Assembly: GCA_964016885.1 (NCBI GenBank)
Contig: OZ024756.1
Coordinates: forward strand, 37,200,001-37,264,000
Source: Eledone cirrhosa
Lineage: Eukaryota
Reading direction: 5' to 3'
Length of the DNA stretch: 64,000 nucleotides
Under the pieces are notes generated by a model. That model searched no databases, was not told the DNA's origin, and saw nothing but the letters and a program-made list of their open reading frames with translations. Of this stretch, positions 38,201-43,698 are shown one piece after another (the stretch's first letter is position 1; each line of letters starts with the position of its first letter). The translations under genes were made by a program, and so were the position numbers.

Positions 38201-38518
38201 TATAAAGAAAAAAAGATGAAATCGAAAATGCAACTGGAGTCTTATTTTTAAAAAAATATATATATTTATTTGGTTCCTTTACCGGTTTCGCAGTTCTTCT
38301 GCTTTTCAAAAGGTGAGTTGAGATGGAGGGTCTGTGGTTTTTCTCACATCTGAGAAAACTTATCAGATGTGAGAAAAACCACAGACCCTCCATCTTAACT
38401 CTACTTTTGAAAAGCAGAAGAACTGCGAAACCGGTAAAGGAACCAAATAAATATATATATATATTTTTTAAAAATAAGACTCCAGTTGCATTTTCGATTT
38501 CATCTTTTTTTCTTTATA
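38201..38518. mobile_element. 318-bp palindrome with two opposed U3-A8-core hammerhead motifs (- 38276-38313; + 38404-38439)
   Basis: cctt-TTGAAAA-gcag aagaa ctgc-GAAA-ccgg-TA^-aagg on the minus arm, with the same motif (ctt/aag stem I) on the plus arm. Confidence 0.75.
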
Positions 38519-38649
38519 TATATATATATATATATATATATATATATATATATATATATATATATGTGTGTGTGTGTGTGTGTGTGTATTTATATTTTTG
38601 CAAGATTCTTGATGTGGATACATGTGTTGAAACAAGTATTGTTCTTCTT

Positions 38650-38745
38650 TGAGACTCTGTTAAGTGACACATTGCCAAGATGTCACACAATGGGGTCGAA
38701 CCCGGGACCTAGAGATTACAAAGCGAACTTCTTAAACCATTCAGT
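38650..38745 (-). mobile_element. 5' fragment of a second tRNA-SINE family
   Basis: ggggtcgaacccggg (reverse B box) and ttcttaaaccattcag (reverse A box). Confidence 0.55.
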
Positions 38746-38775
38746 AAAGCTGCATCTACTTATCTATCGCATGTA

Positions 38776-38856
38776 TTAGGCTGTGACATACATTCCCGCC
38801 GTTTTCTTTTATTATAACAAATTATGACAACGGCGGGAATTTATGTTACAATCCAA
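38776..38856. mobile_element. 81-bp mariner-type MITE
   Basis: ~28-bp TIRs ttaggctgtgacatacattcccgccgtt / aacggcgggaatttatgttacaatccaa; TA on the left, TG on the right (mutated TA TSD). Confidence 0.75.
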
Positions 38857-38924
38857 TGTATATATATATATATATATATATATATATATATATATATATA
38901 TATATATATATATATATATATGCA

Positions 38925-39280
38925 AAAGTTTTATTTAAAATTGTTGGGTTACAACGAGTAAATATTTTATAACTGATATAAAGCACTCAACAAGTTTTGG
39001 AGTAGATATACGATATTAAACAAATGGAAACTAGATTTATAAAACCATATTTATTTCATTATACATATTTCAGGGATACCATATTAAAAATATGGCATGC
39101 CTTCTTCAGATAAAATACAATATATAAGCAGTTTTATAAATAAATTTGACGTACCATAGAATTTTGAACAATTTCCATTTAAATGGAAATTGTTCAAACT
39201 TCTATGGTACGTCAAATTTATTTATAAAACTGCTTATATATTGTATTTTATCTGAAGAAGGCATGCCATATTTTTAATAT
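38925..39280. mobile_element. Family C cassette with 200-bp palindrome (39081-39280); intact HHR - 39052-39117
   Basis: tattttat-CTGAAGA-agg c atgccatatt ttt aatatggtat c cct-GAAA-t atgt ATA^-atgaaata, with an 8-bp stem I. The mirror arm carries only the 5' half. Confidence 0.85.
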
Positions 39281-39699
39281 CGTATATCTATATATTCAGA
39301 CCTTTTAACTCTCCCCGCCCGACGGAGTTATCGCCCACTCACTTTAGGATGATTGGGCGATGTCTTCTCATATGAAAATGGGTATAGCTTTTATTATGTA
39401 AAATCTCCCTATTTTGCCTCATTTCTCTCCGTTTTAGGGCACTTTTTTTTCATAGTACTCCCCTGTTTGGTATTATATATACTCATTCACATTGTATATA
39501 GCATTCACATTGTATATAGCACCTTATGCTCGTTACAATATTTCTAATTTTACAAGTCATCTATGGGCTTACCACACCCACTACACAATATCTATCACTA
39601 CAGCGGGTATTCTTAAAAAGTCCTGCTTATATGTAAGTAAATATATATATATATATATATATATATATATATATATATATATATATATATATATATAGT

Positions 39700-40045
39700 A
39701 ATAATAATAAAATTGAAGACTATAATCCAAAGAGGGCTCGATAAGGAAAATATATATCAAATATATAAGAACCGTATCAGAAGATCACGTTAAGGGTGAA
39801 AGCAGCGATTCTTTGCTTAAACTTTAATCTGTTATTTTAATAAATATATATATATATATATATATATATATATATATATAGTAATAATAAATGTGAAAAC
39901 TAAAATCCGAAGAGGGCTCGATAAGGATTATATATATATAAACCTGTAGAGCAAATATTTATTATAAGAACAGATTAAGTTTAAGCAAAGAATCGCTGCT
40001 TAAACTTTAAGCAGCGTTTCTTTGCTTAAACTTTAATCTGTTTCA
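39700..40045. mobile_element. Family E HHR-like cassettes (core CAGAAGA) and a small fold-back at 39969-40042; minus copy at 44325-44422
   Basis: tcagaaga-t ccc gttaa ggg t-GAAA-gca gcgattctt tgc-TT (44.3-kb version; the 39.8-kb copy has cac for ccc). Shared flank gaagacta..atccaaagagggctc. Confidence 0.5.
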
Positions 40046-40087
40046 TATATATATATATATATGTAGAAGATGATATATATAGAAGAT

Positions 40088-40212
40088 GAGAAATCATCAG
40101 GAAGCTCCTGATGATTTCTCACGAATGAAACAGTTCTAGTCCTGTAGAAGCTCTTCTATATTAAAACTTTTATACTCTGCTATGTATTGAGTACTTTACT
40201 TACTGTGGTTAT
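40088..40212 (+). mobile_element. Family A HHR cassette (HHR 40103-40152) with short inverted 5' duplication and tail
   Basis: agctc-CTGATGA(40108-40114)..GAAACAG..CTGTA^gaagct, followed by ttatactctgctatgtattgagtac. Confidence 0.75.
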
Positions 40213-41330
40213 ATATATATAAGTATATTTCAAAATATGAAAATGCGCATATATATATAAATATATACCCCACCCCCTCCACACACACACACACATATAT
40301 ATATATATATATATGTGTGTGTGTGTGGAGGGGGGGGGGTATATATTTATATATATATGCGCATTTTCATATTTTGAAATATACTTACAGACACCCAGCA
40401 ATAAAATGCCAGGCAATACAAAATCTTTTGGAATCCAAGACACCAAAACCCTATAAAAAAGAAAATCCAGTCAAATATATGTCCCTTTCCTACCCCACCC
40501 TATCATATCCCAGAAAGTAGTAAGGAGAGGGTCCTTAAAAAGCTTATAAAGACAAGATGGCGCCAAGATCAGTAGACTTCATCAGTAAAAACCGAGGTGA
40601 CATAAGACCCGAATGGAATTATGGAAATTGAGACCAACCCGCCATTTCCTAACAGTGAGGAGGATTTCCAACCACACACACACACACATACACACACACA
40701 CACACATACACACATACACACACACACACATATATATATATATATTTATATTTATATATATATATATACACAGAGACAAACACACACATATTCACACACA
40801 TATATATATATATATCTACACACAGATACACCTACACATATATATATATATATATATATATATACATACACATACACACACACACACACATATAAATACA
40901 TATATATATATATATATACACAGAGACAAACACACACACACACAGACATACATACACACACACACACACACACACACACACATATATATAATATATACAC
41001 ACACACACACATATAGATATATACACACACATACACATACACATACACACACATATATATATATGTACACACACACACACACACGCACACATACACACAT
41101 ACACACACAGACACACACACACACACACCTTTCTCTCGGTCTGTCTATGTATCTATCTATCTGTCTTTGTCCGGGCCTCTTTCTATCCCTATCTATCTTA
41201 CACACACTCTCTCTTTCTCTCTCTCACACACACACACACACACTCTCTCTTTCTCTCTCTCACACACACACACACACACACACACACACATATGTATATA
41301 TATATATATATATATAATATTTAAGACTAG

Positions 41331-42095
41331 GTGGTAAGATACCAGGTGGACCATAACGCACCAGAGTACTCAATACTTAGGGTAGTAGAGTGGGTCGTAG
41401 GAAAAGAGTCAGGACCCCTACGGCTGAGCTCCGACCGTTTCGACGGCTAGATCCGAACTCATCAAACTGTCGAAACGGCCGGAGCTTAGTCGTCGGGCTC
41501 CTGACTCCTTTCCCATGACCCACTCTACTACCCTAAGTATTGAGTACTCTGGTGGGTTAGGGTCCACCTGGTCCCTTACCACACTTTCTTTGTTATCCCC
41601 TTTTTTTGTACTGTTGACCATATTATTCTCCACTTTTTCAATTATATATACACACACAAATACGAAGGAGTTGTGGTAAGGAACCAGGTGGACCATAACG
41701 CACCAGAGTACTCAATACTTAGGGTAGTAGAGTGGGTAATAGGAAAAAGTTTGACCCCGACGGCAGAGCTCAAGCCGTTTCGACGGCTATTTCTGGACTA
41801 AAACTTTTAGTCCACAAATAGCCGTCGAAACGGCTTGAGCTCTGCCGTCGGGGTCAAATTTTTCCTATATACAAATTTATATATATATATATATATATAT
41901 ATATATATTTGTATATATATATATATATATATATAACGAAGGAAATGTGGTAAGGAACCAGGTGGACCATAACGCACCAAAGTACTCAATACTTGAGGTA
42001 GTAGAGTGGGTAATAGGAACCAGTAAGACCCCGACAGCTGAGCTCAAGCCGTTTCGACGGCTTGAGCTCAGCTGTCGGGGTCTTACTGGTTCCTA
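41331..42095. mobile_element. Three adjacent family B fold-back cassettes (41331-41582 variant; 41662-41867; 41934-42094)
   Basis: Each is a palindrome around the gacggct../..ccgtc-GAAAC region with the shared tail cccactctactaccctaagtattgagtactctggtgcgttatggtccacctgg. Confidence 0.8.
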
Positions 42096-43035
42096 TATAT
42101 ATATATATATATATATATATATATATATATAAATATATATATAAATATATATATATATATATATATATAAATATATATATATACAAATATATATATATAT
42201 ATATATATATATATAAATATATATATATATATATATATATATATATATATTTGTATATATATATATATATATATATATATATATAAATATATATATATAC
42301 AAATATATATATATATATATATATATATATATATATATATATATATATATAAATATATATATATATATATAAATATTTATATATATGTATATACACAAAT
42401 ATATATATATATACACATACATATGTGTGTGTGTGTGTGTGTGCGTGTGTGTGTGTGTATGTGTGTGCGCACGTGTCCCGATTCAAGTAGTACCATGCTA
42501 ATACCAAAATACCAAAATATCTAGAGAAAAAAAAACAAAAAAAAAACAAAACAAAACAAAACAAAACAAAACAAAACAAAAACAAAAAAAAAAAACAGAA
42601 GCCAACTAAATCTTCCGACGAACAATACCAAAAATATTTTAAAGAATTTAAAAAAAAAAAATTAAAAAGACAACAACTAAAAAAAAACCTAATAACTGAA
42701 GAACTGAAGAACTGCAGAATTACAAAACCGAAGTTCTTGACATATTTGGGTTTGATGCCATAGACGAGTCTTTACTGAAATTGTGACGTCGAACGCTAGT
42801 GTACAGACGGTAAAATATGAGGCTTTTTTACTGAAGTGGAACTGGGTCATATATGAGAATGGTTTTAACAGGCAGTAATTAAATGGTTCTTCATAGGGTG
42901 TAGAACTTTAAATATCTGTAAGAACTGAAGAATTGGCAGCAAATGTTTTAGTTGTATTTGATTTCTTTCTTTCATAGCGATTACAATACTGGAGAAAGAA
43001 GCTGGAGAGAGAGTTGGTGTATTAGTTTATTGGTT

Positions 43036-43182
43036 TATTGGTGTACTGGTGTACTGGTGTACTGGTGTACTGGGTGTACTGGTGTACTGTGTACTGGTGT
43101 ACTGGTGTACTGGGTGTACTGGTGTACTGTGTACTGGTCTACTGGTGTACTGGTGTACTGGTCTACTGGTGTACTGAGTTAC
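43036..43182. repeat. (GGTGTACT)n minisatellite
   Basis: Directly visible. Confidence 0.9.
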
Positions 43183-43189
43183 TGGGTTA

Positions 43190-43371
43190 GTGTAATTACT
43201 AAGGGCTGTATCATCTGGGGCTATGATTGGGTGTTTTTGAACCTACAGAAAATTATACTCGAGCAACGGGAAGTGAAGTGTTTGGCTCAAGAACACAACA
43301 CGCAACCCAGGAATCGAACCCACGACATTATGATCGTAAGTCCAACACCCTTACCACTAGGTCACGTGCTC
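43190..43371 (-). mobile_element. tRNA-derived SINE of another family
   Basis: Reverse A box (ttaccactaggtcac), reverse B box (ggaatcgaacc), then gtgaagtgtttggctcaagaacac. Confidence 0.75.
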
Positions 43372-43572
43372 CACACACACACACACACACACACACACAT
43401 TTTTATTATAAATAAATATATATATATGTATATATATAGGGTGTCTCCCCCAAAAATGTATACATACTTTGATTACAATGCTGTTGAAGTGTGTATGCTA
43501 AGTGTTAATTGAACAAGTACTTTCATGCTTTCGCAATCTTCAGGTTCATATTCTGTGGTGTTAGTCAAGTTT

Positions 43573-43698
43573 GCATTTCTTATGCTTTTCAAAAATAATT
43601 TTGAGATAGAGTGCTCGTGATTTGTGCTAGCAAAAATCCCGAGCAGTCTATCTCAAAATTATTTTTGAAAAGCATAAGAAATGCGCAACCGGTAAAAA
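43573..43698. mobile_element. Fold-back cassette with a degenerate U3-A8 hammerhead (+ 43662-43697)
   Basis: ttt-TTGAAAA-gcat aagaa atgc-GcAA-ccgg-TA^-aaa; inverted repeat 43573-43684. Confidence 0.6.

Follow-up and report, generated by a model that had tools for sequence, protein, structure and literature searches.

Is a hammerhead ribozyme whose catalytic core departs from the consensus at two linked positions a fixed natural form, and what element carries it? This question is raised by a 64,000-nucleotide stretch of the Eledone cirrhosa genome (contig OZ024756.1, positions 37,200,001 to 37,264,000; hereafter the window), in which hammerhead-like motifs read UUGAAAA where CUGANGA is expected, with U3-A8 in place of the tertiary pair C3-G8. 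Our study has identified the cassettes that contain these motifs as end fragments of the pseudo-long terminal repeats (pLTRs) of two related Neptune-like families of Penelope-like elements (PLEs), referred to here as families A and B. We consider it probable that these fragments hold a fixed U3-A8 minimal hammerhead able to act only as a dimer, weakly in family A and not at all in family B.

The three UUGAAAA motifs described in the first-pass annotation are present, one in each arm of a palindrome at 38.2-38.5 kb and one in a cassette at 43.6 kb (Table 1). Both family A arms read UUGAAAA-gcag aagaa cugc-GAAA-ccgg-UA, and the family B core reads UUGAAAA-gcau aagaa augc-GCAA-ccgg-UA. In addition, we identified a fourth, truncated UUGAAAA followed by stem II on the minus strand, at 43592-43573 (the heptamer occupies 43592-43586). 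The fit to a minimal hammerhead proposed in that annotation was borne out for the family A core and for the covariation of helix II; it failed for family B, in which GCAA amounts to A13C and almost no helix I is left. Two other points needed revision. First, the palindrome arms are not independent cases and belong to a single head-to-head insertion (38140-38518) flanked by (TA)n runs. Second, the 43.6-kb cassette, previously taken as a diverged member of the same family, belongs to a separate family, and its GCAA is a fixed state, not decay. The left arm begins at the likely transcription start, at -73 relative to the cleavage site, and runs to a long 3' end (+147, with the tail); its core has a palindromic helix III and 4 bp in each of helices I and II, which places it in the 4-bp helix I subfamily; the right arm likewise begins at the likely transcription start, runs to a short 3' end (+79) with (TA)n next to it, and belongs to the 3-bp helix I subfamily. 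This difference (38302-38316 on the minus strand, 38400-38406 on the plus strand) is the only mixture of subfamilies among 31 typed head-to-head pairs, and may have arisen by gene conversion or by template switching. A two-template origin of the palindromes as a rule was rejected, the one mixed pair of the 31 being that of the window itself. Against the family B copy L232, the 43.6-kb fragment is 91-93% identical over 43629-43839, and its end near 43860 was read from the sequence.

Table 1. Cassettes and hammerhead cores of families A and B in the window, with the basis of each assignment.
Feature	Position	Strand	Basis
Family A pLTR fragment, left arm	38140..38352	-	blastn against full-length copy L053, 94-97% identity; end classes
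Left-arm minimal type I hammerhead core, U3 38309 to A17 38280	38280..38309	-	U3-A8
11-nt spacer, head-to-head junction	38353..38363	no strand	sequence
Family A pLTR fragment, right arm	38364..38518	+	blastn against L053, 94-95% identity
Right-arm minimal type I hammerhead core, U3 38407 to A17 38436	38407..38436	+	U3-A8
Family B inverted arm, broken off after helix II	43573..43628	-	blastn against family B copy L232, 88-89% identity
3'-tailed family B pLTR fragment, then (TA)n	43629..43860	+	blastn against L232
Family B hammerhead-like core, U3 43665 to A17 43694	43665..43694	+	U3-A8 and A13C, helix I of 3 A-U pairs

The proposal that a linked U3-A8 double substitution is fixed in a whole element family holds, and it does so in two families. 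We searched the 3.0-Gb genome to which the window belongs, leaving positions 7 and 8 free and position 3 unconstrained in the family A pattern, and obtained 11,875 exact matches to the family A motif and 5,276 to that of family B; the reversed-pattern controls gave 0 in each case, so neither motif can be attributed to chance. A 22-mer situated 43 nt downstream of the motif has 16,942 matches, and the first 100 of these served as an unselected sample of family A: 83 of these copies reach the core, all 83 have U3 and all 83 have A8, and 41 belong to the 4-bp helix I subfamily. Random single changes in place of the linked pair, which the first-pass annotation had named as the contrary outcome, were not what the copies displayed; single changes are rare and unlinked, with 101 non-U3 copies in family A (A8 kept in 100 of the 100 listed), 47 non-A8 copies, and 27 non-U3 copies in family B, all of which have A8. 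No C3-G8 form of either family was found, and a C3-G8 pattern with the same helix III gave two unrelated places. Among the first 100 family B matches listed, the box is GCAA in 98, and the loop is UAGAA in 93 and AAGAA in 7. It is important to note that this fixation reflects a small number of master elements as ancestors and is no proof of selection or activity. Close to an IL-17-domain gene that adjoins a family A copy (L055:2437-2997; G000:C1 at about 348.86-348.95 Mb), seven family A copies have the identical U3C change, six of them about 9.6 kb apart; these are likely segmental duplicates that inflate the non-U3 count.

The identity of the elements comes from their longer copies; those of family A run into a GIY-YIG gene, and a tblastn search found no PLE coding sequence within the window. 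The near full-length family A copy L053 consists of the motif, open reading frames (ORFs), the 3' untranslated region (UTR) and the motif again (at 7444 and 2931, about 4.5 kb apart); in the full-length layout both pLTRs contain the motif and enclose ORF1 and an ORF2 that encodes a reverse transcriptase (RT), a CxxxxCxxC linker and a GIY-YIG endonuclease. The family B copy L232 likewise has the motif in both pLTRs and the same layout. Family B is a sister family of A, with an identity of 54% over part of the RT and of 53.5% over 99 aa of the endonuclease. In Pfam searches of family A, GIY-YIG scored above its cut-off and RVT_1 reached 29.5 bits against a cut-off of 29.6; the closest named homologue of its RT is from Octopus bimaculoides (75%), with bivalve elements at about 50%. 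An RT followed by a C-terminal GIY-YIG domain is the arrangement of endonuclease-positive PLEs. Family A copies sit in (TA)n, and their pLTRs occur in partial tandem and in inverted arrangements, with a tail at only one of the ends. The linker between RT and endonuclease reads CGRSNCGTC in family A and CDRPNCGIC in family B, both of which fit CX2-5CxxC, and a cysteine linker of this type marks the Neptune group in the available text of PMC3846280 and PMC8557442. Of 30 ORF-start loci, 10 have a first ORF that stays open over 401 codons; its overlap with the RT frame lies at U UUU UUA, a site common to families A and B and to 3 of 18 relatives examined, which suggests that a programmed -1 frameshift is likely in these Neptune-like elements. 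The heptamer was located at L142:2611-2617, in L232 (minus strand), and at L263:1330, L264:586 and L267:915.

Evidence that U3-A8 is compensatory comes from relatives and not from fixation within the families. We scanned both strands of 124 loci encoding related RTs in other organisms, with positions 3, 8 and 13 free and H required at position 17. The sense strand contained 33 distinct motifs (19 C3-G8, 10 U3-A8, 1 C3-A8, 1 U3-G8 and 2 C3-C8), and the antisense strand contained 2. With the two C3-C8 rows dropped, the 31 remaining rows give a Fisher p of 2.6e-6 for covariation between positions 3 and 8, a value that overstates the case because nine of the ten U3-A8 rows come from one assembly. 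In a relaxed scan by eye of 17 of the closest loci, the motif was present 3' of the gene in eight, as C3-G8 in seven and as U3-A8 in one (L342); the closest relatives in other animals, L263 and L271, have CUGAUGA...GAAA-CCGG-UU at the same location and share the CCGG palindrome. In the RT tree, which comprises family A and 23 loci (24 rows; midpoint root only) and left out motif-less loci, most mixed-state tandem-array loci, and L292, L293, L304 and L324, U3-A8 requires five changes, three of them forced by well-supported branches, and the U3-A8 rows were grouped together in 0% of 200 bootstrap trees. Between families A and B, identical letters make up 16 of 17 positions in the core and helix III, 29 of 44 upstream and 91 of 192 downstream, and both sides change at helix II base pair 4 and at helix I base pair 3. 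On the strength of the relatives' motifs, the RT tree and this conservation of the core, we regard the motif of both families as a hammerhead homologue, and U3-A8 as a recurrent compensatory state that appears on at least three branches.

The activity to be expected of the motifs was assessed from their core and folding. Changes at A13 strongly reduce hammerhead activity. This base is part of the consensus core (PMC3088659). Family A has all the elements of that core, namely N3-UGAN-N8-A, GAAA, U16.1-H17 and complementary positions 3 and 8; family B, with its GCAA box in nearly all of the copies listed, lacks A13 and is consequently filed as a degenerate homologue and not as a consensus member. 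Helix II, closed by G10.1-C11.1, has 4 bp and a pair probability of 0.85-0.92 in all three window motifs; for helix I, in which 3-5 bp would be expected of such a minimal hammerhead, the probability is about 0.55 in the left arm (4 bp), 0.02 in the right arm (3 bp) and 0.00 in family B. Because helix III consists of the ACCGGU palindrome alone, a double hammerhead is needed; this self-complementary sequence does form in the minimum-energy dimer of all three motifs. The double-hammerhead pairing was computed at -21.1 against a dimer minimum of -22.5 kcal/mol for the 4-bp subfamily, at -15.5 against -19.1 for the 3-bp subfamily, and at -7.3 against -22.1 for family B, in which a hairpin buries U3-A6. 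In the 4-bp form, the fold of lowest energy also contains a U3-A17 pair, which by analogy with the C3-G17 trap proposed for hammerheads (PMC3884650) would slow cleavage in family A; A17 occurs in none of the 11 other U3-A8 Penelope motifs found here, which represent only about three lineages. Family A is therefore predicted to cut weakly and only as a dimer, and family B to be poorly active or inactive. Read-through of the window palindrome in either direction would give a hairpin of about 185 bp (-251.5 kcal/mol), and such a transcript would not be expected to cleave.

Copy ends bear on the question of which RNAs were reverse transcribed. Relative to the cleavage site, 51 of 100 family A copies start at -75 to -61, 27 further upstream, 8 at -57 to -6 and 14 at 0 to +22, and the loose ends of contigs agree with starts at -75 to -61; the 51 begin upstream of an intact motif, which points to uncut templates. 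The 3' ends fall at +74 to +79 in 38 copies and at +144 to +148 in 59. Position -72 lies 30 nt past a TATAAAA box, in an initiator-like (Inr-like) CCAGAT; this spacing, together with the fact that both window arms start at this position, makes it the likely transcription start. A promoter-like set of motifs is conserved between the pLTRs of the two families, namely an E2F-like TGGCGCGAAA, CCAAT boxes, a TATA-like box and, 30 nt further on, an Inr-like site; the set was located at about 1000-1240 in L142 and upstream of the motif in L230 and L232. We propose that this TATA/Inr promoter would start transcripts 72 nt upstream of the cleavage site, that short uncut transcripts would be reverse transcribed into (TA)n targets, and that an inverted second copy would often be added, giving palindromes like that of the window. 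The two direct-repeat motifs of one full-length transcript, or those of two RNAs, could pair through the ACCGGU helix III as a double hammerhead, which would cleave after A17, slowed by the competing U3-A17 pair.

Several observations weigh against this reading, and some of them bear on an alternative that we consider unlikely, in which the family A motif works efficiently as a ribozyme in vivo, as a dimer helped by protein, and sets the 5' end of the element RNA, with U3-A8 being neutral. The rows used for covariation are not independent. The Neptune-like assignment depends on the cysteine linker, the RT tree having contained no named reference elements. The start at -72 is deduced only from motif spacing and copy ends, and the cleavage, transcripts and RNA ends of the cassettes are predicted. 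Moreover, the cleavage site is the exact starting point of 3 of the 100 copies, possibly a weak sign of real cleavage. The same could be true of a broad lean towards 0 to -2 among the 464 genome-wide matches to junctions within -11 to 0: by eye, about 38 of the 100 rows listed fall at 0 to -2 and about 11 at -5 to -9, with around a quarter of the rows being mutated intact copies. Efficient cutting is also compatible with the activity of U3-A8 swaps in vitro, as cited in PMC3088659, and with a core better conserved than its flanks between the two families. However, the junctions are spread over 0, -1, -2 and -3, as A/T microhomology would also produce, and we estimate from the 464 matches that they represent about 2-3% of copies. 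Of 30 junction loci checked by script, 18 had no adjacent intact core, and the five of these at 0 include two of one duplicated pair and one mutated copy. Among the 11 ORF-start loci listed that lack an adjacent intact motif, none starts at the cleavage site. A sharp cleavage footprint was accordingly not established in the 100-copy sample, the junction pattern or the 30 scripted loci. Finally, the minimal hammerheads of Penelope elements are poor at cleaving in vitro, dimers included, according to the available text of PMC4209133.

The state of family B raises another alternative, which we judge improbable: that the motif is kept for a non-catalytic task, either with ACCGGU and helix II as a signal for RNA dimerisation or RT binding, or as the donor (5') splice site of an intron in the 5' UTR. 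The amplification of family B to about 5,000 copies took place with a fixed A13C and with helix I probabilities of 0.00, while helix II (0.85-0.9) and the palindrome were kept, although this retention may be plain inheritance after a recent loss of activity. The putative splice site would start at G16.2 (38434-38439 and 43692-43697 in the window), reading CCG/GUAAAG in family A and CCG/GUAAAA in family B. Branch-point-like UACUAAC repeats lie downstream in family B, a pyrimidine tract and an AG follow 95 nt on in family A, and introns in the 5' UTR of pLTRs are known (PMC8557442, in part). On the other hand, the putative donor has no G at +5, and a spliced genomic copy gave 0 matches, even though Penelope copies normally keep introns. 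The joint of the predicted intron was absent from the contigs of three runs of unrecorded kind, which is no evidence either way. Returning to a weakly cutting hammerhead in family A and a predicted inactive one in family B, a possible but tentative account is that the ribozyme was switched down stepwise while the element spread, first by U3-A8 beside A17, and then in family B by the fixation of A13C and the loss of helix I. It is conceivable, to a similar degree, that the changes in family B preceded its amplification to about 5,000 copies, and that helix II and ACCGGU stayed as a dimerisation or processing signal and not as a cutter.

That the resemblance is a chance product of an A/T-rich repeat (UUUUGAAAA run) with no hammerhead homologue behind it, a view to which the position of the heptamer in a U-run and A-run and the lack of a hammerhead in Rfam lend something, has a negligible probability and is refuted by position and homology in relatives, since in close relatives a canonical hammerhead occupies the corresponding position and shares the 4-nt palindrome of helix III, helix II base pair 4 and helix I base pair 3 change on both sides between the families, and the identical heptamer stands in a published Penelope alignment (PMC4209133, in part). 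As to Rfam, no hammerhead was found among the 150 of 558 whole-window matches listed, in which microsatellite matches to miRNA models dominate, nor among the four sub-threshold matches at 38380-38450; these four, one of them to MALAT1 (E=1.8), were judged to be chance.

The novelty implied by the first-pass annotation for a natural U3-A8 does not stand, as this pair is already in print in PMC3088659 and PMC4209133. Replacement of C3-G8 by a covarying U3-A8 has been reported for several natural hammerheads, as rare examples (Perreault et al. 2011, PMC3088659); the tertiary Watson-Crick covariation of positions 3 and 8 is the same in families A and B, whereas here the pair is fixed in two high-copy retroelement families. 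U3-A8 hammerheads have also been described in the pLTRs of Cercyon Penelope elements in Schistosoma mansoni, with about 1,300 matches to a dedicated descriptor, in a paper which also reports that other Penelope minimal hammerheads need a dimer and cleave poorly even so (Cervera & De la Peña 2014, PMC4209133). As far as the available parts of that paper go, Cercyon and our families share a type I minimal hammerhead in PLE pLTRs with a palindromic helix III that needs a dimer, and mostly dispersed truncated copies with some close opposite-strand pairs. The supplement row S. mansoni(4) has the identical UUGAAAA heptamer with U3-A8; unlike that row, families A and B have no extra base between A9 and G10.1, a helix II of 4 bp, a 4-nt palindrome as helix III, and A17 instead of U17 at the cleavage site. 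They also differ from Cercyon in host lineage and in a copy number about ten times higher, with very homogeneous copies, and family B has A13C besides U3-A8. What is new here is the scale, the repeated origin of the swap, and sister families that differ in the intactness of the ribozyme. Our literature search found no report of families A or B or of a fixed A13C, with most subscription papers outside its reach; searches on octopus hammerhead ribozymes gave no title on these families, and searches for natural C3U + G8A hammerheads under those names found nothing.

With the Neptune group (Arkhipova 2006, as presented in the available parts of PMC8557442 and PMC3846280), our families share the RT, the CX2-5CxxC linker, the C-terminal GIY-YIG and (TA)n targets, as well as copies in partial tandem, 5'-truncated copies in inverted orientation and a tail at a single end. 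This tail measures 68 nt here versus 30-40 nt in that group, and the overlap of ORF1 and ORF2 at the conserved U UUU UUA is a further difference; an optional frameshift is mentioned in the legend of Fig. 1 in PMC8557442. Non-LTR retrozymes (bioRxiv 10.64898/2026.07.22.740005, in part) are likewise short non-autonomous hammerhead sequences related to PLE pLTRs, but they form head-to-tail tandem arrays, whereas the pLTR fragments studied here are solo or head-to-head. In practical terms, about 17,000 exact motif copies would escape descriptors based on CUGANGA. The role of Penelope hammerheads has been called unclear, and Naiads spread without them (Craig et al. 2021, PMC8557442, in part); the spread of a family with a likely inactive hammerhead would support the dispensability of cleavage that the hammerhead-free Naiads suggest. 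If the stepwise switch-down is true, families A and B would constitute a natural pair for testing the purpose of these hammerheads.

Some minor observations concern other sequences. Penelope-like animal contigs occur inside bacterial metagenome-assembled genomes (L339-L345, L351 and others), and they are likely host contamination, of a type already noted in PMC8557442. Within the window, hammerhead-like cores with canonical C3-G8 are present in other repeats, at 2107 (minus strand), 2145 (plus), 14207 (plus), about 51419 (minus) and about 40108 (plus), and some of them also form inverted pairs. Between the family A and family B cassettes, 41330-42090 contains three palindromic cassettes of another repeat family, unrelated to both, with a GAAA-CGGC box.

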